Shown here piece by piece: positions 744 through 11,743 of a stretch of 11,743 nt of DNA (position 1 is the first letter of the stretch; every line of letters begins with the position of its first letter). The notes beneath the pieces are model-generated. The model searched no databases, was not told where the DNA came from, and worked only from the letters and a program-made list of their open reading frames with translations. Made by a program: the position numbers and the translations under genes. The stretch comes from an uncultured archaeon (GTDB lineage: Archaea > Asgardarchaeota > Lokiarchaeia > Sigyniarchaeales > SOKP01), in NCBI GenBank assembly GCA_964447495.1, contig CAYUTF010000094.1, positions 1-11,743 on the forward strand. The letters are read 5' to 3'.

Positions 744-1172
744 ATGATGGGCAATAGTTTCTATATGGATATAGATGATATTCAGCCAAGTCAACTTTAT
801 CTTAATATCCGGAAAATTGAAGATGTTAAGAAAGAATACCCAACTATACGTCCAGAGACAATTGATGCCGTTCCAATAAAAATTTTAAATAATCAAATTA
901 TCTTTACAGATGGACATACCAGAGCATATGTTTTATGGACCCATGGATATAAAAAGATAAAAGTGATATGGGAGGATGAAGAATTAGATTGGCAAGCATA
1001 CCAAATATGCGTAGATTGGTGTAAGGAAGCAGGTATTACTACCATATCGGATCTCAAAACTAGAATCATTGATAATGAATCGTATCAAATTAAATGGATT
1101 AAGCGTTGCCAAGATATGTTCTTAGAATTAGAGAAAAAAAAAATTGAAAAACAAAGAAAAGAAAATAACTAA
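744..1172 (+). CDS. Small ParB/sulfiredoxin N-terminal-like domain protein
   Basis: IDDIQPSQLYL, then VPIK, then IIFTDGHTRA matches the ParB/Srx DGHxR signature. Start is uncertain (GTG 735, ATG 744 or ATG 747). Directly follows the kinase stop at 732. Confidence 0.7.
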   Translation: MMGNSFYMDIDDIQPSQLYLNIRKIEDVKKEYPTIRPETIDAVPIKILNNQIIFTDGHTRAYVLWTHGYKKIKVIWEDEELDWQAYQICVDWCKEAGITTISDLKTRIIDNESYQIKWIKRCQDMFLELEKKKIEKQRKENN

Positions 1173-1175
1173 TTT

Positions 1176-2651
1176 TTACAATGGAGGATCGCTATTAAAA
1201 CTTAATGTAGCAGCAACCCCCATATTATCGTTCATCAGCGGATTCTGGACAATGGATAACGGTGCCTGATTGAAGGGAATAAAATTAAATGCGGTATTAA
1301 ATGCAGAATTTATCGTTTCATTTTCATCAAGTTTGTCCCAGAATACATGGAAAAACCATGATCCTGCCCATCCATCTCCATTAGCGTTATTTATCCAATA
1401 CCATGAGGGTCTATTCGAAGAAGCAGTGACCATAATACAGTTTGGGATATTATACCAGCTACTTCCTACATTTGGGTCACTATTTAGGAAATTCCCGCTG
1501 AAACAACAATCAATATTGATCATCATTCGCTTACATTCTATCTCCTTCACTAAATTATAAAACTCTAGTTCAGTGATAAAACTATTGTCTGCTTCAAAAT
1601 GAAAGGTAGCACTGCCATCGGGAAACTTCTTATTTGAACCGTGATCGCACATATAGATAATCAGGTAATCATTCTCATTTATCAAATCCGCAAATGAACC
1701 CGCTATAGAGACATTTAATTCTTGTTTGAAACGCGAAGCATTCACATCATCATCAAGTACATCGATGACCGCACCAACCATATCGTCAAGGATTCCATCA
1801 TTACGATAAATATTGACTATACCATCAATATCATTCTTCCAATACAACATAAAAAAGATATTTTCATCGGTATATCCATGATTTTTTAAAACCCAATAAA
1901 CTTGTAGTGATTGGGCGGGAAACCCATCTGAATTAATGCCACCCGGACTTGGAGGAGGCTCCATCGGGTTTGTTACGTTTACACTGATCCATTTATCAAT
2001 TTTGATATTATCGAAATACACAGCTTTATTCATTAAATCTGGAAAGGCAGCTTCCACACTTAACACTAAGTTCAAATCAGTAATTTCATTATTTGTTTCA
2101 TTATTACACACTCCAGTAAGATTTAAAGAAAACCAACTGTTGATAATATTATTAACCCCATCAGTCCAATCAATTCTTACTGTTTGACCAGTAGAATTTA
2201 GCCACTGAAGCCCTATTTTAGTACCGTTTCCTACAAGTGGCACAGGACTTTGGATAAAGATATCTACTGTAATATTATATAATGCATATTCAAGAAGATC
2301 GTAATTTTCGGAATAGTCTAATGAAAAATTGCCTACCACCGGTAAATCAGTGCCTGAGAATATAGTTAATGAACCATATGGATTTCCAAACACCGAATAC
2401 TCACCAAAACAAGCAGTCCCATCAAAAGTCCAGTTTCCCAGACCTAAATCAATGCTAGAGTCGCCACCGTCATTAAAATCATAATCCGGTTCGCTTTCAT
2501 AAAAATCATTCGCGCTTCCTACGATTAATGCTTTTCTCTCGCTAGGTATTACTATAGGAGGAGTGGTTGGTAACGTTAAAATTATTACAGAAATAATTAA
2601 TGCTCCTATAACTGCGAGCACAACTATCGGAATAACTACTTTTTTTTTCAT
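1176..2651 (-). CDS. Membrane-anchored or secreted clan CD cysteine peptidase (C13 legumain/Gpi8-like) with an inserted beta-sandwich-like domain
   Basis: N-terminal MKKK plus hydrophobic helix. Legumain-like motifs in order: KALIVG, VYWVLKNHGYTDENIFFM, YLIIYMCDHG (His337), MINIDCCFSG (Cys383), MVTASS. Preceded by RBS AGGTGA. Confidence 0.8.
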   Translation of the reverse strand: MKKKVVIPIVVLAVIGALIISVIILTLPTTPPIVIPSERKALIVGSANDFYESEPDYDFNDGGDSSIDLGLGNWTFDGTACFGEYSVFGNPYGSLTIFSGTDLPVVGNFSLDYSENYDLLEYALYNITVDIFIQSPVPLVGNGTKIGLQWLNSTGQTVRIDWTDGVNNIINSWFSLNLTGVCNNETNNEITDLNLVLSVEAAFPDLMNKAVYFDNIKIDKWISVNVTNPMEPPPSPGGINSDGFPAQSLQVYWVLKNHGYTDENIFFMLYWKNDIDGIVNIYRNDGILDDMVGAVIDVLDDDVNASRFKQELNVSIAGSFADLINENDYLIIYMCDHGSNKKFPDGSATFHFEADNSFITELEFYNLVKEIECKRMMINIDCCFSGNFLNSDPNVGSSWYNIPNCIMVTASSNRPSWYWINNANGDGWAGSWFFHVFWDKLDENETINSAFNTAFNFIPFNQAPLSIVQNPLMNDNMGVAATLSFNSDPPL

Positions 2652-2787: not shown

Positions 2788-4287
2788 TTAAAATTCGGGT
2801 TTTTCGATAATATCTAACAAATCATATTTCGAGATCATTTCGAGAACGCCCATAACCTTCATACCATGTTCGTACATCTCATTTGCATCATATAAGTTCC
2901 GCCAGCAAAATGGGCATTCCGTTGTCAGAAAATCTGCTCCTATAGCATTTGCTTCGTCGCACCGTAAACTTGCGGTTCTGATTGAGAAATCAGGATAACC
3001 AGCTCTTACTCCGCCTCCCGCTCCACAACACATTGAATTCATCTTAATTCTGTACATTTCGGTAAATTTAATGCCTACGTCCTCTTCGAGTTTTCGGAGT
3101 ATGATACGTGGTATATCGAACCAATCCTCAATCATTTTGTCTATTTTACGCATATCAAACATTAGATTTTCTGATTTCTTGATCATATTTTGCTCCATGT
3201 CAATAGCAAAATGCCTGCCGGTATGGCAAGGATCATGATAGGTCACCACTTTTCCCTTTAACTCTTTATTCGGTTTGAATTTGATTTCTCCCTTGAAATC
3301 TTTAATTCTCTCATATTCTGCTTCAAGTCCTTTTAACTCCGCCTCTAATCTCTTATCCGGCTTCGCTTTTAATTTCTTCTTGATTTCATCGATCTTTCCA
3401 GGCAATTCTTTTTTCTTTTTGGGGACTGAAATTAAATCCGAGATTAATTCAAACGCATGTTGGGTCTTAAAAGGGAGTTCTTCTCCTTCTGGCATCCATT
3501 TTGGATAATCAATCGTGAATGTTCTATAACATCCTGCACAAGAGAAATAAAGTTTATCTAAATGTTTAAAATTTTCGAGATTGGTATTCATTAGTTCTTG
3601 GGCAGTATCTACAGCGCCTATTCTAAAGAAGGGGCTTCCGCAACATACCTCATCATCAAGTAAGGTAAAATTCATTCCAAGCAGATCAAACAACTTTGCA
3701 GTTGCGATGGCAACCTCTACTTGACGATAACTTGCAGTACAACCGACATAATAGCCGATTTTCGCATCTTTGTTATTTATATATTTACTTAAACCCGCAT
3801 CTTTAGCCCATTTCATTCGTTCGTCTTTGGCTCCGCCATATGGATTATTTAATTCTTTGACTAAGCGATTAACTAACTGATGCTTTTCAATCATAGGAAC
3901 GCCCGATTCTATTAATGCCGCTCTTAATGACTCAATAATATCTACTGTGGGTATTTTATTTTCGCATTGTGCAGAACACTGTCCACACGTTATACAAGGC
4001 ATTAAAACATCACGGACCTCTTCCGAAAATTCTAGATCGCCATTTAAAATAGAACGCGCAATCCAAATTTTTCCGGCATTCCAAAATGCTTCCCAACCAT
4101 ACTCTATCCCCGCAGGGCAGGAGTCCACCATTCCCTCATAAAGAACGGTACCTTGTTTCCCGGTAAATTCGCCTATTCCCTTTCGATCAGGCTCTCCAGA
4201 ATACGCGAAACGGCATGCTTTACAATGAATACAACGAAATACATCTTTTTTTAATTCTTGTAATCTTTCCATTCCAGTTTTTGCCAT
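2788..4287 (-). CDS. Fe-S oxidoreductase, HdrD/GlcF/GlpC-like (two 4Fe-4S motifs plus two CCG domains)
   Basis: Ferredoxin-type motifs CIHCKAC...SCP and CITCGQCSAQC. CCG domain 1: YYVGCT...CCGSP...SCAGC. CCG domain 2: YHDPCHTGR...CCGAGGG...ECPFC. Start moved to ATG 4287 because the GTG at 4299 lies inside the RBS GAGGTGA (4296-4302). Confidence 0.9.
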   Translation of the reverse strand: MAKTGMERLQELKKDVFRCIHCKACRFAYSGEPDRKGIGEFTGKQGTVLYEGMVDSCPAGIEYGWEAFWNAGKIWIARSILNGDLEFSEEVRDVLMPCITCGQCSAQCENKIPTVDIIESLRAALIESGVPMIEKHQLVNRLVKELNNPYGGAKDERMKWAKDAGLSKYINNKDAKIGYYVGCTASYRQVEVAIATAKLFDLLGMNFTLLDDEVCCGSPFFRIGAVDTAQELMNTNLENFKHLDKLYFSCAGCYRTFTIDYPKWMPEGEELPFKTQHAFELISDLISVPKKKKELPGKIDEIKKKLKAKPDKRLEAELKGLEAEYERIKDFKGEIKFKPNKELKGKVVTYHDPCHTGRHFAIDMEQNMIKKSENLMFDMRKIDKMIEDWFDIPRIILRKLEEDVGIKFTEMYRIKMNSMCCGAGGGVRAGYPDFSIRTASLRCDEANAIGADFLTTECPFCWRNLYDANEMYEHGMKVMGVLEMISKYDLLDIIEKPEF

Positions 4288-4295
4288 TTTTCTTA

Positions 4296-4302
4296 TCACC
4301 TC
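4296..4302 (-). promoter_or_regulatory. Shine-Dalgarno site of the Fe-S oxidoreductase gene
   Basis: GAGGTGA 8 nt upstream of ATG 4287, just after the flavoprotein stop. Confidence 0.75.
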
Positions 4303-4308
4303 GTTAAA

Positions 4309-5793
4309 TTACGGGAGTGCAAGCCTCCCAGGATGCATGATCATATTCGGATCTACTAGCTTCTTAAATGCTCGTAAATATTTCCAATACATAGAAGCTT
4401 TATAATAAGCTTCGATATGGATAAAAGGATCAGGTCGATAATTTAACCATCCTTGCTTTAGTCCATATTCCGTAGTTTCTCGATTCATTTCTTGAACTTT
4501 TTCGAGATCGGACTGTTTTGTTGAATCAAAGCAAACGATGGGCATACAAATCGCTTGTCGACAACGTTCGATGCTTGCTATCCACATCACGGGAGGGAAC
4601 CCATATTTCTCCATAGCTTTACAATACATATCTGCGAATTGTGCACAATCGTTCCAAGGAGTATACCATGTAATAAATAAGTAACCCGCTTCCCAGAATG
4701 CATAGGGGATCGCAATTTTATTTGGTTTCTTCATTCTACTTGCAATTTGTTTGGGATGTAATTCCCACGGTTTCATGGCATCAGGGTCCTTAGCTCTATT
4801 TTTCTTATAATCTTCAGCCATACTATTAATTCTGTTAACCACATAATCTAATTCCTCCTGGGTTTGTGCCCAACATTCCCAATTCATCCACCACCTACTT
4901 ACACCAATCTTCTCGAAGAATTCATAGTTGTGAGGGATTTTATCCTTCGGCCAACGAGTCATTACAAGGGGGTAATTTCCTCCTTGAACCATAACTGTGT
5001 TATGACTAATACCGAATTCTTGTTTACCAACCTCAAGAGTTAAGTCTTGCATATCATGAGGATTACTCATACCCCACGCAACAACGGTTTTAAATTTAGG
5101 GTGAGGATAGATTTTCACAGCAACTTTAGTCACGACACCCATAGCGCCTTGACTCCCCATTAAGAAGGACCACATATCCGGTCCTAAACCATATTTGTAA
5201 AATGGTTTAGCAAACGGAAGAGCCCACGATCCTGTTCGAATAACATCGCCATTTGGAAATACTATTTCCGCACACATAAAGTTATCTCCTTGTGGACCTA
5301 CAGAACTTGTATACAGCGAAAAGCCACGATCAATAGCATCTCCCATTACAGTAGCTGCAGGAGGTGCGCCATCTGCAATTGGTGGCGCCCAATCTGGATA
5401 GTTTTTAGCCATATAAGCCCAAAGTTGTCCGTTTGTGACACCAGGCTCTACTACGACATAGCGATTATCTTCATCGATTTCGATGATTCTATCCATTCTA
5501 CTTAAATCAAGAAGTACGCCTCCTGGTTTAATAGTAGGACATGCAAACCCTCCTGATAATCCTGCTGAAACAGGACTGACAGCTATTTTCTCTGCAGAGC
5601 AGTAAAGTAGGATTTTGCGGATTTCTTCAGGGTATTTTGGGCGAACTACAATATCAGGGATTTGGGATTCTAAACCCATGACCGATTTGGCAAGATACGA
5701 AGCAGTGATTGCCTTATTATTAGTAGCATAATTCTTGCCTACAATACCAATCATGGCTTCTAAATCTTTCTCATCTGGAAGTTTATAGCTCAT
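4309..5793 (-). CDS. FAD-linked oxidoreductase of the VAO/PCMH fold (FAD_binding_4 plus FAD-oxidase C-terminal domain)
   Basis: PDIVVRP, GGVLLDLSRMDRIIEID, VVVEPGVT, EIVFPNGDVIRTG, GSQGAMGVVTK and the C-terminal KKLVDPNMIMHPG. Confidence 0.9.
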   Translation of the reverse strand: MSYKLPDEKDLEAMIGIVGKNYATNNKAITASYLAKSVMGLESQIPDIVVRPKYPEEIRKILLYCSAEKIAVSPVSAGLSGGFACPTIKPGGVLLDLSRMDRIIEIDEDNRYVVVEPGVTNGQLWAYMAKNYPDWAPPIADGAPPAATVMGDAIDRGFSLYTSSVGPQGDNFMCAEIVFPNGDVIRTGSWALPFAKPFYKYGLGPDMWSFLMGSQGAMGVVTKVAVKIYPHPKFKTVVAWGMSNPHDMQDLTLEVGKQEFGISHNTVMVQGGNYPLVMTRWPKDKIPHNYEFFEKIGVSRWWMNWECWAQTQEELDYVVNRINSMAEDYKKNRAKDPDAMKPWELHPKQIASRMKKPNKIAIPYAFWEAGYLFITWYTPWNDCAQFADMYCKAMEKYGFPPVMWIASIERCRQAICMPIVCFDSTKQSDLEKVQEMNRETTEYGLKQGWLNYRPDPFIHIEAYYKASMYWKYLRAFKKLVDPNMIMHPGRLALP

Positions 5794-6019
5794 AATTATT
5801 AACCTTTTACTCTATCTTCATATTTTTTGATTTTTTTAATAATATAGAATACTAGTTTGGAAAATTCACTACCAAATTTTAAATTTCGTAATATACATTT
5901 CCAATAAAAATAGGAAATCCTCTTATAACAATAATCTATATCGCTTAAAAAGATAACAATGGTGCTAAAATTTGTATTTTATAACGAAAAATTGTTACAT
6001 GCCATTTATAGAGGGCACA

Positions 6020-6391
6020 TTAAAACTGAGATATATTATAAACACGTTTAATTTCCTTATGTAATGCGGTTATGGTGAACGGTTTTTCGATAAATGAGGT
6101 GACACCAACTGATAAAGCTTTATGCTCTACGGATTTGTCTGCGCTGGTGAAAATAATTTTAGTATGAGAGTTCATTTTCAAAATTTCGATTGAGGCATCA
6201 ATTCCATTTTTAAGGGGCATTCGGTGGTCCATCAAAATTATATCTGGTTTTGATTGCATAGTATTAAATAAATCAACAGCCTCCTTTCCGTTACTTGCTT
6301 TTCCAACCACCTCAAAACCGAATGTCGTCAACATTAACTCATACAGTCGCTGTAAAGATAGATCATCTTCGACGATGAGGATTTTAATTAT
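6020..6391 (-). CDS. Single-domain response regulator (REC, CheY-like)
   Basis: KILIVEDD lies in frame upstream of the track's ATG at 6334. Also PDIILMDHRMPLKNG (phosphoacceptor Asp), IIFTSA and FIEKPF. An in-frame TAG at 6395-6397 limits extension, so the start is placed at ATA 6391 (or ATT 6388); the exact start is uncertain. Confidence 0.85.
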   Translation of the reverse strand: MIKILIVEDDLSLQRLYELMLTTFGFEVVGKASNGKEAVDLFNTMQSKPDIILMDHRMPLKNGIDASIEILKMNSHTKIIFTSADKSVEHKALSVGVTSFIEKPFTITALHKEIKRVYNISQF

Positions 6392-8270
6392 TACCTACCA
6401 CCTCCGGTAATAAAATAACGAAATTACTTCCCTCAGAATAATCCCCTGGGATTTTATCTTCGACCCAAACTTGACCATTATATAAATTAAGGATTTTTTT
6501 CACAAGTGTAAGTCCAATACCTAAGCCACTTACGAATTCTTTGGCGCTATATCCTCTCTGAAAGATTTTTTCTTTCATAATATCAGGGATACCAATTCCG
6601 TTATCGATAAATTCGAATTTTACATAAGGGATATTTTCTTTCTTCTCTTTTGAGATGTTGATTTGGATCTTAATATATGTATTTCGATTATATCGAATTG
6701 CATTAATCAATATATTTTCAAATAAGTCAGAAAGTAATTGATTTGCATAGATGGTGATTTCATTATAGGGAGAATTAATTATGATTTCCACCTTTTTTTC
6801 ATGAAAACTCCTTATCAGAAAATCTCTTACTTCATTTAAAACCTTAAGAGCGTTAACTTCTTCTATTGAGAAAGTTAAGTCTTCAACATCGGATAATGTA
6901 CGAACGTTTGAAACTAAATTTGATCCTCTATTCACCTGATCGTTAATGATACTTAAAAGTTCTCGGCTCTCTTCAGGGAGCATTTTATTTTGAAGTTTAA
7001 TATTCAATAAATCAATTGCGGAAAGAATATTTTGAAGAATGTTATTGATATCATGTGCAAACAAATCTTTATAGAAGTTAGAACGGTTAAAAGATTCCCT
7101 GTATTTTAGTTCAGAATCCTTTAATTTTTCTTCGGTTATTTTCTTTTCTGTGATATCTTTTAGAATAAATTGGACTAGAGTTTCATCAATAATTTTAACC
7201 AAGGATACAGAGGCACTAACCCATATTGTTTTTCCTAAAGTTTGAGCTATAGGAAATGTGAAATCTTTAACTTGTTCTCCACTTATTATTTGTTGAATAA
7301 TTTTTTCAAATCGAGGTATAAGATGGATATTTCCTTCGAATAGAGATAATGCCTCCTTAAAATGAATACCAATAAGATCCTTAATAGTGTGAACAGAAAG
7401 TATATTGTTCGTAGATGAGTTACAATCAAGTATAATTCCGTTCATATCAATTAGAAAAATCGAATAGGGTGAGCTTTCAAATAATTCTCGATACTTTAAT
7501 TGAGTTTTTTTTAGTGATTCTTCTGCTTTTTTTATTTGGGTAATTTCTTTTGTAATCTCTACTGCAGCAACCACTTTACCTTTCTCATTAAAAACAGGAT
7601 CACCTTTAACTAGCCAAATCCTTCCATCAGGTGTAATTATCTCACCTGAAGTAGATTTAGCACTTTTAGTTGTTTTAATAACAGGGCAACCCTCACAAGG
7701 AGAATCTCTACGTGGCCAAATTTCATAACATTTTTTGCCAATCAAATTATGAATTTTCAAACCTACTGACTCAGCAGCAGCTTTGTTTGTCCATAAAATT
7801 TTATTATCTAAATCTTGATAAACTAAATGTTCACTAATGCTTTCTAATATTATTGTTTTTTCTTGCTCTGCTTTTCTGAGTGATTTTTCAATTTGTTTTT
7901 GCCTTGTAAGATCTTCTGTAAAAACAACTACAAAATGAGATGGTATAAATATATATGTCGCTAGAAAGGTTTTCTTTTTGGGTGGTTTTCCTACTTCAAA
8001 TTCAATCTCTTTACAATAATTAAAATTATTATTATAACAATTACGAATATCTATTGCCATCATCGAGTTATTCTCAAACAATAGAGACAATTTTTTTCCA
8101 AGATAATTATTTATCTCACCATCAGTCAGTATTTCTAATGATTTATTAAATTTAATTAATAAGAAATCATCTTCCTTTTTTTCCCAGATATAGACTGGTA
8201 TGGGAATAGAGATAAAAATTGATTTATAGTCCGTATTAGTTGAACTTATTTGCTCCTTAAAATCATTCAT
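6384..8270 (-). CDS. Cytoplasmic multi-PAS sensor histidine kinase
   Basis: Three PAS/PAC-like repeats ending EDLT, KEIT and KDIT. H-box FAHDINNIL, N-box FENILINAIRY, G1 DNGIGI, F-box IFQRG, G2 GLGIGL. No hydrophobic TM segment seen. Confidence 0.93.
   Translation of the reverse strand: MNDFKEQISSTNTDYKSIFISIPIPVYIWEKKEDDFLLIKFNKSLEILTDGEINNYLGKKLSLLFENNSMMAIDIRNCYNNNFNYCKEIEFEVGKPPKKKTFLATYIFIPSHFVVVFTEDLTRQKQIEKSLRKAEQEKTIILESISEHLVYQDLDNKILWTNKAAAESVGLKIHNLIGKKCYEIWPRRDSPCEGCPVIKTTKSAKSTSGEIITPDGRIWLVKGDPVFNEKGKVVAAVEITKEITQIKKAEESLKKTQLKYRELFESSPYSIFLIDMNGIILDCNSSTNNILSVHTIKDLIGIHFKEALSLFEGNIHLIPRFEKIIQQIISGEQVKDFTFPIAQTLGKTIWVSASVSLVKIIDETLVQFILKDITEKKITEEKLKDSELKYRESFNRSNFYKDLFAHDINNILQNILSAIDLLNIKLQNKMLPEESRELLSIINDQVNRGSNLVSNVRTLSDVEDLTFSIEEVNALKVLNEVRDFLIRSFHEKKVEIIINSPYNEITIYANQLLSDLFENILINAIRYNRNTYIKIQINISKEKKENIPYVKFEFIDNGIGIPDIMKEKIFQRGYSAKEFVSGLGIGLTLVKKILNLYNGQVWVEDKIPGDYSEGSNFVILLPEVVGNN
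6399..6405 (-). promoter_or_regulatory. Shine-Dalgarno site for the response regulator, embedded in the kinase 3' end
   Basis: GGAGGTG 7 nt upstream of ATA 6391. Confidence 0.65.
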
Positions 8271-8428
8271 AAGAAACTCATCGATTATATCTTATAAAAA
8301 ATGATACCTAATAGCCTTTTTCTCTTGAATTAAATAGTAAAAGAAGAATTATTTAATCATTCGCATTTTCTAAAGCGTCAATTTAAAAAGAATAATAATA
8401 AAATCATAATAGAAATAGAAATATAAGA

Positions 8429-9229
8429 TTATTTTAAGAATCTTTTCGAAGATAAACGGGTTCCGAGAAACATAAAAAACAATGAAAAGATTAAAGTCAA
8501 AGGTAATTGCCCTAAGACGATGTAAACAAAATTGGGCTCTGCAGACACGGAATATAATACTATTGAAAGAGTAAAATGAATAAGAGAATTTATCAAAGCT
8601 ATTTTCCAATTAGGGGATAAATAACCCAGAATTAAGTTTGGAAGTAAAAATGATAAAATAATATTAGCTGTTGATAATAATATCAAAGCTGGCATGAATC
8701 TTGTAAATAATTGTTCTGGAGTAAGCAGACGATTCAAATCCAAAGTTTCATATATAAAAACGGTTGCATAGATACTCAAAAATATAAGGAATGGAGTGAT
8801 GGGACCTACTATTATCCAAGATAAAAATAATCTTCTAAAAGGAGAAGTTAATGTCTTCCCTTTTAGATTATTATTTATTACTTTTTCTATGTCTTCTTGA
8901 ATAACTTTTTCGGGATCATAATCTGGTGCGTAAAGGTTCACAAATTCTAGCATTATCTCTTTCAAAATAGATGAGACAAGTTCATTATTGTCATTAGAAT
9001 TTACTATAGCCGCTCCAAGTAAATTTTCTTCCACATTGGGATATAAAATTAATTTGTTATTCTCACCTAGATCAACATTCTTTACAATGCTATTTAAAGC
9101 TTCTCGGCTGAAATTAGCAATAGAAGTAAAAAATCCAATAAGTATATTATCATCGTATTGCTTTTTCATGAAATTTTTAGAAAAGAGCAAGAAACCCTGC
9201 TCATCCATAATATATATACTTTTTAACAT
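8429..9229 (-). CDS. Longin-like domain fused to four predicted C-terminal transmembrane helices
   Basis: Residues 1-125 follow the longin beta-beta-alpha-beta-beta-beta-alpha-alpha pattern (MLKSIYIMDEQGFLLFSKNF; ILIGFFTSIANFSRE; LLGAAIV; SILKEIMLEFVNLY). Four hydrophobic stretches follow. RBS-like GAGTGA at 9235-9240. Confidence 0.7.
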   Translation of the reverse strand: MLKSIYIMDEQGFLLFSKNFMKKQYDDNILIGFFTSIANFSREALNSIVKNVDLGENNKLILYPNVEENLLGAAIVNSNDNNELVSSILKEIMLEFVNLYAPDYDPEKVIQEDIEKVINNNLKGKTLTSPFRRLFLSWIIVGPITPFLIFLSIYATVFIYETLDLNRLLTPEQLFTRFMPALILLSTANIILSFLLPNLILGYLSPNWKIALINSLIHFTLSIVLYSVSAEPNFVYIVLGQLPLTLIFSLFFMFLGTRLSSKRFLK

Positions 9230-9249
9230 TTAGTTCACTCACTTTTATC

Positions 9250-10974
9250 TCAATTATGTTGTTCTATTTCTTTCTTATCGATAAATTCAATATATTCACT
9301 TAAAGATGCTTTTACTTTTTTAAAGCTGAACAAACTTGGTCCAAATAGTTCGGTTAATCGCACAATTATACTATTAGGGTTTTCTTTCACAAAAATTTTA
9401 AATTTTTCCATTTTTCGTTCTTCAATTATTAAATCTACTTCTTTTAAAGCATACATTTGTCTAATTACATCATCTCGAGGGTTATTTAGTTCAATATTAA
9501 TAATTTCGCCATTATATGGTAATTCTTCAATTAATTCATCATATGTCCCAATATTGGCTTCCCTTTTAGTTATTGTTAAAATTTGATTACAATTACACAC
9601 AACTCCTTCAGGGGCATGAAAAATGAGAACAATATGAAAATCTTCTTTTATTTTTGCCATGTAATTATTGAATTTCTCGAACTCTAATCGTCCTAACATT
9701 CCAAAAGGTAAAGAAAACATAATAATTGAAGGAGTTTGAAGCAGAGCGCGTCCTATTGAGAAGAGAAGAAATTCTAATGATGTAAATTCTGAAAATTTTT
9801 TATTTTTTTTATTTAGTAATCCTGTTACTTCTAGGGCGTGTTTAATATATTCTTTCTTCTTGCTTATTCTCAATGGAACTCCTGCAATTCTATCACCCAT
9901 GATCTCATCGAATCTAGGACTTATACCAGCGCTTTTTAAAGTTTGATCTAACTCTTGTTTTCTTTTTTTTAAAATTTCATCGATGTTAATCTCATAATGA
10001 ATTGCTTTTTTAATTTTCATTTTTACAATTTTTGAATCATATGCTTCCGGTAAAATAAAAATTCTTTTTTTATCCTTTTCGGAGAGAAGCTGAACAAATC
10101 GACCAAAAATTTCAATTGTTCCTGAAAAATCAGTAAAATTTCCCTTAATTGCTTCAAACAAATCTAATAATTCAATTCTATGATCAGCATTTCTTAAGAT
10201 TTCTTCATCGAATATAATTCCCAGCGATTTTCCTCTATGAATATTAAAGGAAATATCTTTAATTTGATCATGGATGCTCAAATTTCTAACAATTAAATGT
10301 TGTGAATTTTTCTTCAACGGATCCATATTTATTCGATTAGCGATAATTCTGCACAACTCATCTACTATTTCGTAAATGTGAACTGGTTTAGCTTCATTCC
10401 AATTCTTAATTACGTCTTGCTCGAAAAATTTTTTCTCACTGATAATTCTAGATAATGTTTTTGAAAATGAAATATTAGGTAATAAAGGGTGCTTTTCAAA
10501 ATTAATATTTAATGAAATCACAAAATTAGGAAAGAAGACCCGGATTTCTCTATAATAGGGTATATTATCTATGGGATAACTTTCATACTTTTGATCAATG
10601 TATTTTACTTCTTCATCTAAAATTTGTAAATGTTTTCGAAATTCTCTCCGAATTAACTTTCTCATTCGATAGATAATTCTTCTAGGACTTATAAGGCCAT
10701 CATCATCAAAATCGGGTTCAAATAGTATTTCATTAAAATCTAATTCATCTTCGACCGGGGTATATATTTTTAGTAATGGCGTTCCTTTTTCTAAAACCTC
10801 TTTATTTGTAAAAAAAAGAACTTCAAAAAAGGATTTTTTATATATTAAATTAATGATGGAGGCTATTCCAAATGTATTTTCCCGATAAGTCATCCAAAAC
10901 TTTTTAGAAAACCTTATTGCATCCAATATCTTCAGTCTAAGGCGCTCTTTTTCGGAACTATTAGAGTTCTTCAA
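9250..10974 (-). CDS. Degenerate ABC ATPase-like protein with a ~225-aa N-terminal extension (possible UEV/RWD E2-like fold)
   Basis: ABC scaffold is recognisable (LIVRNLS, IKDISFNIHRGKSLGI, FSGTIEIFG, ALEVTGL, IGRALLQTPSIIM), but Walker A, signature and Walker B are replaced. TTG start with GGAGGTG (10982-10988) 7 nt upstream; overlaps the upstream gene by 14 nt. Confidence 0.75.
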   Translation of the reverse strand: MKNSNSSEKERLRLKILDAIRFSKKFWMTYRENTFGIASIINLIYKKSFFEVLFFTNKEVLEKGTPLLKIYTPVEDELDFNEILFEPDFDDDGLISPRRIIYRMRKLIRREFRKHLQILDEEVKYIDQKYESYPIDNIPYYREIRVFFPNFVISLNINFEKHPLLPNISFSKTLSRIISEKKFFEQDVIKNWNEAKPVHIYEIVDELCRIIANRINMDPLKKNSQHLIVRNLSIHDQIKDISFNIHRGKSLGIIFDEEILRNADHRIELLDLFEAIKGNFTDFSGTIEIFGRFVQLLSEKDKKRIFILPEAYDSKIVKMKIKKAIHYEINIDEILKKRKQELDQTLKSAGISPRFDEIMGDRIAGVPLRISKKKEYIKHALEVTGLLNKKNKKFSEFTSLEFLLFSIGRALLQTPSIIMFSLPFGMLGRLEFEKFNNYMAKIKEDFHIVLIFHAPEGVVCNCNQILTITKREANIGTYDELIEELPYNGEIINIELNNPRDDVIRQMYALKEVDLIIEERKMEKFKIFVKENPNSIIVRLTELFGPSLFSFKKVKASLSEYIEFIDKKEIEQHN

Positions 10975-11743
10975 TCTTTGGCACCTCCATTGCTTTATAT
11001 CTAAAGTACTGTTCCATTTTGGAATCAGTTTGCTTTATATTCAAAATTGAATTTTCTCCCATCTCTAATTCAATAATTTGGTGAAGATCAACCATATTTA
11101 GATTGGTAAATAATGAAAAATCGGTTCCAGCTTTATTTTCTAAGACTTTTTCAATTCCTTGTAGGGATTCAAGTCTAGTTATTACATTCTCTTTTATATC
11201 ATTAAAACTAATTTCTATGGATCTACCTTTACCTGGAAGTTGAGTCAGTAAATCTTTAGGTTTTCCAAAATCCAACATCCCACGATTTCTTCCAAATATC
11301 GCAACTTTAGTACAAAATCGTGATTCTTCAGGATAGTGAGTAATGACTATTAATGTTGTTTTAAACTGCTCATTTATTTTTGTGAGAGTTAACCATAAAT
11401 TTTCACGAATGATTGGATCCAATCCTGAAGTAGGCTCATCCAAAATTAAAAAGATTGGATCATGAATTAGCCCTATTGCAATACTAACTCTCCGTTTCTG
11501 GCCTCCTGAAAGATTTCTTACTAATTCATTCATTTTATCTTCAATTTCAAGACTTCGTAGAATCCTTCTTGCTTTTCTAATAATTTCTTTTTCAGATAAA
11601 CCATACTGATTTCCAAAATATAAAATGTTTTCTAAGGTTGTGAAATCTTGGTAAATTTTACCCAAATCTTGTGGAACATACCCATATATCGGTCGAATAC
11701 GCTTAGAATTTCTTTTATTTATGGGTAAACCATATATTTCACA
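10961..11743 (-). CDS. ABC ATP-binding protein (DrrA/ABC-2/ABCA-like), 5' truncated by the window edge
   Basis: Frame is open to base 11743 (CEIYG...IYGYVPQDLGKIY). Q-loop GYVPQ, signature LSGGQ, Walker B/D-loop LILDEPTSGLDP, H-loop IVITH, plus a C-terminal accessory domain. Walker A lies outside the window. Confidence 0.93.
   Translation of the reverse strand, partial: CEIYGLPINKRNSKRIRPIYGYVPQDLGKIYQDFTTLENILYFGNQYGLSEKEIIRKARRILRSLEIEDKMNELVRNLSGGQKRRVSIAIGLIHDPIFLILDEPTSGLDPIIRENLWLTLTKINEQFKTTLIVITHYPEESRFCTKVAIFGRNRGMLDFGKPKDLLTQLPGKGRSIEISFNDIKENVITRLESLQGIEKVLENKAGTDFSLFTNLNMVDLHQIIELEMGENSILNIKQTDSKMEQYFRYKAMEVPKIEEL
10982..10988 (-). promoter_or_regulatory. Shine-Dalgarno site for the pseudo-ATPase, embedded in the upstream ATPase 3' end
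   Basis: GGAGGTG 7 nt upstream of TTG 10974. Confidence 0.7.

Follow-up and report, generated by a model that had tools for sequence, protein, structure and literature searches.

Gene layout at the locus

We analyzed a contig of 11,743 nt (CAYUTF010000094.1, assembly GCA_964447495.1) from the genome of an uncultured Lokiarchaeia archaeon. The whole contig is referred to as the window, its source genome as G000, and the window within that genome as C94. Three minus-strand open reading frames (ORFs) in its right-hand 3.3 kb, denoted genes A, B, and C, encode the end of an ATP-binding cassette (ABC) ATPase, a degenerate ABC nucleotide-binding domain (NBD), and a membrane protein with a predicted longin fold. 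Gene A (10961..11743) has its 5′ end open at the contig end, gene B (9250..10974) encodes 574 aa from a TTG start, and gene C (8429..9229) encodes 266 aa from an ATG start. The features are:

10961..11743, minus strand: 3′ part of gene A (260 codons), covering the NBD from just past Walker A and the C-terminal regulatory domain
10982..10988, minus strand: Shine-Dalgarno-like motif GGAGGTG within the 3′ end of gene A, 7 nt upstream of the gene B TTG
10309..10974, minus strand: gene B residues 1-222, a pair of alpha/beta domains at the N-terminus whose family was not recognized
9250..10308, minus strand: gene B residues 223-574 and stop, degenerate ABC NBD and a C-terminal regulatory domain resembling that of gene A
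8852..9229, minus strand: gene C residues 1-126, predicted cytosolic longin-fold domain
8441..8842, minus strand: gene C residues 130-263, four predicted transmembrane (TM) helices with short loops
6020..8270, minus strand: PAS histidine kinase and response regulator, directly downstream of gene C

The three genes are tightly packed, as an earlier reading of this DNA from its letters and ORFs (the sequence-only reading) had reported. The gene A stop (TAA, 10963-10961) falls 14 nt within gene B, GGAGGTG (10988-10982) precedes the gene B start, and a 20-nt spacer (9230-9249) separates genes B and C, which overlap by 4 nt in the relative G023.

The final 55 bases of the window are the first 55 of another contig of the same genome (C22:1-55; locus L003), an overlap that k-mer comparison found to be unique in the genome, and the frame of gene A continues onto C22 without a stop. 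The remainder of the gene (L003 2..2449, minus strand) encodes a first TM helix (TM1), a double toroid ectodomain, a second TM helix (TM2), and Walker A; the joined frame has 1058 codons counted from the preceding stop. In relatives, each gene A ortholog is read as one uninterrupted frame (1064-1070 aa) on one contig, and a 628-nt contig from an independent sample (X2) extends 527 nt past the C22 start. At the other end, window bases 1-55 are the final 55 bases of contig C141 (6132-6186). Because of these shared 55-base ends, the assembler probably split a single chromosomal stretch into C141, C94, and C22. The canonical ABC ATPase of the sequence-only reading does have complete motifs, but it is only the tail of a membrane protein of about 1058 codons with a large ectodomain. 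Similarly, the statement that no ABC-2 permease is visible is true within the window, because the contig ends there, but permeases lie on the adjoining C22.

Upstream of gene A, C22 encodes a canonical ABC ATPase (ATPase1), here as two ORFs, and two ABC-2 permeases, Perm2 (409 aa) and Perm1 (384 aa), whose genes (L003 6294-7523 and 7528-8682) match PF12698, PF01061, and PF12679. Permease genes thus share an operon with ATPases, as in ABC-2 (type V) exporters, and ATPase1 carries complete catalytic motifs, as does the gene A NBD. An extra DrrA-like ATPase and a small ABC-2 permease, also on C22, are absent from the other tabulated loci.

Conservation and co-inheritance of the operon

Six relatives (G007, G021, G020, G005, G016, and G011) carry the full order Perm1-Perm2-ATPase1-A-B-C on one contig, and in G013 and G002 it is interrupted by contig ends alone. 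Of the 40 relatives searched, 16 have genes B and C side by side: 14 of the 24 genomes from the same genus, G037 from another family (35-41% identity), and G033, where the B-like ORF is truncated. Contig edges carry gene C in G008 and gene B in G013. Eight genomes of the genus lack full-length matches to gene A and strong matches to genes B and C. Perm1 orthologs have a near-identical distribution to that of A-B-C; G001, which lacks strong matches to the trio, has a 120-residue Perm1 fragment alone. The trio is present or absent as a set, and the six genes are co-inherited. The synteny of the trio that the sequence-only reading had proposed to check is conserved; that reading had also held that a conventional permease upstream would speak against its permease-less module, and two conventional ABC-2 permeases and a canonical ATPase travel with the trio.

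A small Zn-ribbon-like ORF (L003 8736-9233, minus strand) has orthologs upstream of Perm1 in nine relatives (10 loci), always directly upstream and on the same strand; it is decayed in G021. Its product (115-189 aa) has no Pfam match and carries the motifs CPVC...C.HHFQ at the N-terminus and IYEEFWEFI at the C-terminus. This protein could be a seventh operon member or an operon regulator.

Simpler operons were observed in sister families (L037 (G030:C16) 3932-9070, L036 (G033) 4301-8138, and L038 (G027) 3999-8032), in which an ATPase is encoded together with one or two ABC-2 permeases and a soluble protein of ~600 aa. The latter combines an unrecognized N-terminal domain of ~270 aa with a competent NBD resembling that of gene A (39-46% identity), and is a possible ancestor of the A/B lineage. 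These operons therefore suggest an ancestral design with two different NBDs.

Directly downstream of gene C lie a receiver-only response regulator (6020-6334, minus strand) and a PAS histidine kinase (6384-8270, minus strand). A regulator homolog is next after gene C in the loci of 4 of 10 relatives (G021, G020, G016, and G023), a full PAS histidine kinase lies near gene C in G021, as in G000, and a kinase fragment was found at the end of the fetched stretch in G018. No kinase or regulator follows gene C in G007, G011, G005, and G003, and the pair may be a regulatory neighbor of gene C, although an inconstant one. None of the 15 tabulated neighborhoods contains a small-GTPase, endosomal sorting complex (ESCRT), or ubiquitin-system gene. 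The sequence-only reading had linked the trio to membrane trafficking or ubiquitin; because no such gene is found in the neighborhoods, that link is left with the names of the folds as its basis.

Gene A joins a competent NBD to a predicted toroid ectodomain

The gene A product consists, in order, of a basic N-terminus, TM1 (14-32), ~660 aa, TM2 (693-711), the NBD, and a C-terminal regulatory domain (TM helices from hydropathy). The NBD has the full catalytic motif set of ABC transporter ATPases (PF00005): Walker A (GESGAGKST) is encoded on C22, and the Q-loop (YVPQD), the signature (LSGGQKRR), Walker B (LILDEPTSGLD), and the H-loop (ITHY) inside the window. Pfam ABC_tran matches the window piece (E = 4.5e-13), the C22 piece (E = 6.1e-8), and the whole G021 ortholog (E = 1.3e-25), and the nearest solved relatives are ABCA3, ABCA4, and ABCA1 (E from 2.5e-51 to 5e-41). 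By these motifs and matches it is a competent NBD of the ABCA/ABC-2 type.

The ~660-aa region contains two separate stretches of prenyltransferase-beta-like repeats. Two Pfam searches matched Prenyltrans (PF00432), at E = 3.3e-35 and 5.3e-37. The beta subunit of Rab geranylgeranyltransferase (RabGGTase) matches residues 487-632 (E = 4e-11), and that of farnesyltransferase (FTase) matches residues 212-308 (E = 2e-8). The ectodomain thus has the alpha-alpha toroid repeats of the prenyltransferase beta/terpene cyclase type. Given a cytoplasmic NBD, it is predicted from hydropathy and charge to lie outside the cell, and this predicted location argues against membership among prenyltransferase or cyclase enzymes.

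The start of gene A was also unusual. In 8 of 11 orthologs, the first ATG, GTG, or TTG comes only after the codons for the conserved basic stretch or TM1 (in G000, L003 2360-2452, minus strand; the same region was used in L016, L021-L025, and L028). For six of these eight, the upstream frame begins immediately behind an in-frame TGA, which itself overlaps the 3′ end of ATPase1, and an ATA or ATC lies 1 to 4 codons past the TGA; in G011 and G002, no stop was met within the 150 nt read upstream. The pattern suggests non-canonical initiation or termination-reinitiation, and gene callers would therefore truncate the protein.

Gene B is a soluble pseudo-NBD

A profile of 26 gene B homologs matched ABC NBDs in the PDB (E = 6e-7), and Pfam returned no family match for the protein, ABC_tran included. 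The AlphaFold2 (AF2) model (pLDDT 85, pTM 0.80) contains a predicted NBD fold: residues 221-569 superpose on CbiO1 (VIA Z 20.1, rmsd 3.7 Å, 227 aligned) and on TM_1403 (VIA Z 19.5, rmsd 3.2 Å, 259 aligned), and Foldseek matched the model to NBDs at E = 2.6e-12. The top fold matches include TM_1403, NosF, and ABCA chains, all with a C-terminal regulatory domain. In profile comparison, gene B is closer to the gene A NBD (hhalign 98%, E = 1.6e-13, 268 columns) than to ATPase1 (86.8%, E = 4.3e-6). The catalytic motifs of the two proteins compare as follows:

Walker A: GESGAGKST in gene A, DEEILRNAD in gene B
Q-loop: Q in gene A, E in gene B
Signature: LSGGQ in gene A, FTSLEF in gene B
Walker B: ILDEP in gene A, IMFSLP in gene B
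H-loop: His in gene A, His kept in gene B (H453, invariant in 26 sequences)

Walker A, the Q-loop, the signature, and Walker B are thus replaced in gene B, and the substitutes are conserved across the 26 homologs, whose alignment has 63 invariant positions. The gene is intact, at 565-647 aa, among the best 120 of 162 matches (E ≤ 0.001), and hydropathy indicates no TM segment. Because an NBD fold is combined with replaced catalytic motifs and no ABC_tran match, gene B is a pseudo-ATPase; it is a soluble pseudo-NBD from the lineage of the gene A NBD. The sequence-only reading had recognized it as a degenerate paralog with a large N-terminal extension, and both descriptions hold. Homologs with names in public records all bear Asgard labels (Promethearchaeota and Lokiarchaeota/Lokiarchaeia, with a few metagenome-assembled genomes of Heimdall-, Hod-, and Hermodarchaeota).

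Within the N-terminal extension, residues 97-214 of the model form a long helix, four strands, and further helices, with a conserved (Y/H)PLLP motif. This topology and motif resemble UBC/RWD domains; the sequence-only reading had named E2-fold domains in its background on Asgard archaea. An E2-like fold could not be shown here: searches with the whole model were filled by NBD chains, the N-terminus aligned with 30 Asgard UQ_con (E2) proteins at an hhalign probability of 0.2%, and PF00179 (UQ_con) found only two true E2 genes in the G000 genome, not gene B. Residues 1-222 returned a best score of 0.78 in the ESM Atlas, which is under the useful level, and hhalign probabilities of 0.1-0.4% against the N-termini of the ~600-aa A-like proteins, gene A, ATPase1, and Perm1.

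Gene C combines a longin fold with four TM helices

The AF2 model of gene C (pLDDT 82) has the order b-b-a-b-b-b-a-a over residues 1-122 (DSSP: strands 2-9, 14-19, 51-55, 58-65, and 70-77; helices 27-45, 82-100, and 111-122), and its first helix holds a conserved GFF.S..NFSREAL motif. The top Foldseek matches are all longin-type, at E = 1.6e-4 and weaker (AP sigma and mu, TRAPP Bet5/Trs23, COPI zeta, Mon1-Ccz1, and SRX). Superposition on the VAMP7 longin domain gave VIA Z 13.8 (rmsd 2.4 Å, 113 aligned), with 14.1 for CPLANE Fuzzy, 13.7 for TRAPP, and 13.1 for Sec22; scores were 12-14.1 for longins, AP-3 included, and 9-10.8 for roadblocks. In the model, residues 1-126 are therefore a longin fold. 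Residues 130-263 form four TM helices, a number also given by a hydropathy scan, and a basic C-terminal tail suggests that both termini are cytoplasmic. The sequence-only description of gene C as a longin-like membrane protein is thus upheld.

Sequence profiles were less informative. No Pfam longin model was significant for gene C (at E ≤ 1, just a chance match to DUF6852), and its profile gave chance matches alone among PDB sequences (E ≥ 0.16). Longin-type paralogs in the same genome have weak matches to Fuz_longin_1, Sybindin, and Longin, below the cut-off.

Gene C has no SNARE motif: helix 3 ends at residue 122, TM1 starts at residue 130, and four TM helices follow, so that the ~8 residues between helix 3 and TM1 leave no room for one. 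The TM1-TM2 loop has ~16 residues in the model; the large extracytoplasmic TM1-TM2 domain of MacB/FtsX-type proteins is missing, a comparison of loop lengths that hardly extends to how the TM bundle is folded. The TM2-TM3 turn has ~3 residues, and gene C therefore lacks an ABC-type coupling helix for NBD docking, which runs counter to the earlier proposal that an NBD heterodimer docks on this protein. Finally, the TM part aligned with Perm1, Perm2, and gene A at hhalign probabilities of 0.1-0.2%.

Of 16 matches to the gene C longin profile in the G000 genome, gene C alone has the C-terminal four-TM tail. Two paralogs of ~440 aa (G000:C13 41711-43024 and 50093-51415, plus strand) show the reverse domain order, with six TM helices followed by the longin-profile domain (E = 0.003 and 0.009). 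A third protein (L034 (G000:C157) 1056-1952, minus strand, 298 aa) has an Arf-family GTPase at residues 7-166 (Pfam, E = 1.5e-33) and a match to the gene C longin profile at residues 183-292; the accessible part of PMC10933270 mentions similar GTPase-longin fusions in Asgard archaea.

A scan of 1.84 billion representatives with gene C returned 251 clusters (E ≤ 0.001), and many of these are longin-TM proteins in full length, at 250-335 aa. Organism names were attached to 5 of 10 clusters looked up, all Asgard, and more distant longin-TM relatives are labeled Helarchaeota. Divergent longin-TM relatives in G031 and G037 do not adjoin ABC genes, so the ABC link is limited to gene C orthologs.

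A candidate intron in ATPase1

The two ORFs of ATPase1 in G000 (L003 2446-3502) are split by a 31-nt insertion (L003 (G000:C22) 2930-2960, minus strand) directly past Walker B, between LDEPTT and GVDA. The insertion is present in G000 and G018 (L020) and absent in G021 and G007. Of 42 genomes of the genus, 6 carry it at this site (L020 and L074-L077 besides G000), with 0 control matches, and a DNA contig from an independent sample contains it unchanged. The insertion can be drawn as a canonical hBHBh′ structure with a 3-bp outer helix, a 4-bp central helix, a 9-bp inner hairpin, and two bulges of 3 nt on opposite strands. Across the six element sequences, 96.9% of cells are paired vs. 25-53% when the partners are slid, and one pair changes from GC to AU on both sides in two of the six (a compensatory change). 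Introns of cbf5 are cut between the second and third bulge residues, according to the accessible part of PMC2738675, and a cut between bulge residues 2 and 3 here restores the ATPase1 frame exactly (...LDEPTTGVDA...). The five short contigs of an RNA run (X11) covered L003 4592-5819 (the DrrA-like ATPase) only, not the element. The element is single-copy in the G000 genome, and a repeated mobile element was dropped as an explanation. By its fold and frame, it is a candidate bulge-helix-bulge pre-mRNA intron in an Asgard protein-coding gene; if spliced, it would extend archaeal pre-mRNA splicing past the crenarchaeal cbf5 case.

Elsewhere in the window, an ORF at 1176-2651 (minus strand) encodes a protein of 491 aa that has a TM helix at its N-terminus and the His/Cys motifs CDHGS and DCCFSGNF, which look like those of a legumain- or caspase-type cysteine peptidase.

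Discussion

We consider that genes A, B, and C belong to a conserved operon of Lokiarchaeia type (Zn-ribbon-like ORF, Perm1, Perm2, ATPase1, A, B, and C) that encodes an elaborated type-V (ABC-2/ABCA-like) exporter, a reading to which we give about an even chance. An exporter is favored over a permease-less motor because permeases and ATPase1 are encoded upstream of gene A. Perm1 and Perm2 would form a heterodimeric type-V translocation pathway powered by a heterodimer of ATPase1 and the gene A NBD, the same two-NBD plan as in the sister-family operons. The gene A toroid would sit over the permeases on the outside and bind or pass on a hydrophobic, possibly isoprenoid, cargo, a role that may be likened to that of ABCA ectodomains and of NosD in NosDFY. 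Gene B, unable to hydrolyze ATP, would most likely act as a non-catalytic partner of a catalytic NBD or of regulatory domains, and the longin domain of gene C may keep gene B at the membrane as a docking or regulatory platform; these roles for B and C we infer.

The likeness to type V exporters (ABC-2, DrrAB-like, NosDFY, and ABCA) is found in the permeases of the operon, which have a large loop after TM1 (PF12698), in the gene A NBD, which is nearest to those of ABCA3, ABCA4, and ABCA1, and in gene B, whose fold and C-terminal regulatory domain resemble those of TM_1403, NosF, and ABCA chains. A large ectodomain works with the permease in known members, as NosD does in NosDFY and the extracellular domains do in ABCA. 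Unlike in type V exporters, however, the ectodomain here is a double prenyltransferase-like toroid joined to the NBD via a single TM helix, three NBD-type proteins are encoded, one of them dead, and a longin-4TM subunit is added. As in heterodimeric exporters such as TM287/288, a competent NBD (A) is encoded beside a diverged paralog (B). Known degenerate ABC sites usually retain Walker A and still bind ATP, whereas gene B has lost Walker A, the Q-loop, the signature, and Walker B together and has a 222-aa N-terminal extension. Gene C shares fold and strand order with eukaryotic longins (VAMP7/Sec22/Ykt6, AP sigma/mu, TRAPP Bet5/Trs23, Mon1-Ccz1, and SRX) and with Asgard longin/roadblock proteins, but differs from the longin R-SNAREs in having no SNARE motif, four TM helices instead of one, and a place in an ABC operon. 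A further parallel is with the type VII mechanotransmission proteins MacB, FtsX, and LolCE: they too combine a 4-TM subunit with an extracytoplasmic domain, which could be moved by ATP turnover in the cytoplasm. In those proteins the outside domain lies between TM1 and TM2 of the 4-TM protein, whereas the loops of gene C are short and the outside domain is on gene A, between its own two TM helices.

Several points weigh against the exporter reading. The association of the six proteins is inferred from their genes, and the location of the toroid outside the cell from hydropathy and charge. The toroid bears the name of an enzyme family on account of its repeats, and this name does not indicate a cargo. 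In G018, Perm1-Perm2 and ATPase1-A-B-C are on separate contigs with other genes beside each; ATPase1 and the trio can therefore be transcribed apart from the permeases, which also fits a separate A-B-C machine. G033 retains gene C beside the truncated B-like ORF, without gene A, and G015 has Perm1-Perm2-ATPase1 at a contig end, with A, B, and C not found in its genome.

Such a separate machine, in which the gene A NBD and the gene B pseudo-NBD form an asymmetric dimer on the two TM helices of A and the four of C, would be a self-contained mechanotransmitting device beside Perm1, Perm2, and ATPase1, with cytoplasmic ATP turnover moving the outside toroid. It agrees with gene B being the closest paralog of the gene A NBD and sharing its C-terminal regulatory domain, with the translational packing of A, B, and C, with a total of six TM helices (2 + 4) as in one ABC-2 transmembrane domain, with ATPase1-A-B-C lying apart from the permeases in G018, and with the retention of a B-like ORF with C in G033. 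However, gene B has neither Walker A nor the signature, so that an A/B dimer lacks a complete ATP site, and for that reason we give this possibility lower weight. Furthermore, the cytoplasmic loops of gene C are too short for a coupling helix, the TM part of this protein is unlike Perm1, Perm2, and A, and both permeases co-occur with the trio; we regard the separate machine as rather unlikely. Alternatively, B and C could be a sensor/regulator pair that reports transporter activity to a two-component system or a small GTPase, comparable to Bce-type transporters. The regulator homolog after gene C in four relatives, together with the full kinase in G021 and G000 and the fragment in G018, would accord with this, as would the ~15 further longin paralogs in the genome, one of them fused to an Arf-like GTPase, and the role of longin domains as known GTPase platforms (accessible part of PMC10933270). 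The absence of a kinase or regulator after gene C in four other relatives and of a GTPase gene from the operon argues against it, and we judge it improbable.

That A, B, and C are mere neighbors with unrelated functions, or that B is a decaying ATPase pseudogene, is scarcely credible. Gene B has indeed lost all catalytic motifs except the H-loop His, but its intact length among the best matches, its 63 invariant positions, and its conserved motif replacements are not those of a pseudogene, and B-C adjacency persists at 35-41% identity in G037, which speaks against chance neighborhood. An extension of the exporter reading, which we offer as a long shot, is that B and C link a lipid-type ABC exporter to the longin and small-GTPase proteins of Asgard archaea: gene B would read the nucleotide state of the NBDs and pass it to the longin-4TM platform, which would recruit a GTPase or a longin/roadblock partner; export of an isoprenoid component of the membrane or envelope would then be coupled to local membrane remodeling, and the pair would be a prokaryotic forerunner of longin membrane-identity modules.

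A literature search (Asgard longin/TM/ABC, longin-roadblock Lokiarchaeota, and prenyltransferase toroid-ABC) found no description of the arrangement, although supplementary asCOG tables may list the families. This applies to the fusion of an NBD, one TM helix, and a double toroid together with a dead NBD paralog, as well as to the pair of pseudo-NBD and longin-4TM protein, and it agrees with the sequence-only reading, which had not recognized the arrangement from any characterized system. Asgard genomes contain dozens of longin domains, many in fusions (PMC10933270; bioRxiv 10.1101/2020.10.19.343400, both in their accessible parts), and the accessible parts of these two sources and of PMC7997004 treat longin domains without ABC or TM context.

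The partners of Asgard longin and roadblock proteins are almost all unknown because their genes are rarely in operons (PMC10933270, accessible part). At this locus, by contrast, a membrane-anchored longin domain is encoded in a conserved operon with defined partners, which are therefore directly testable by co-expression. If the cargo is an isoprenoid lipid or an envelope component, the system would be relevant to membrane building and remodeling in these archaea.

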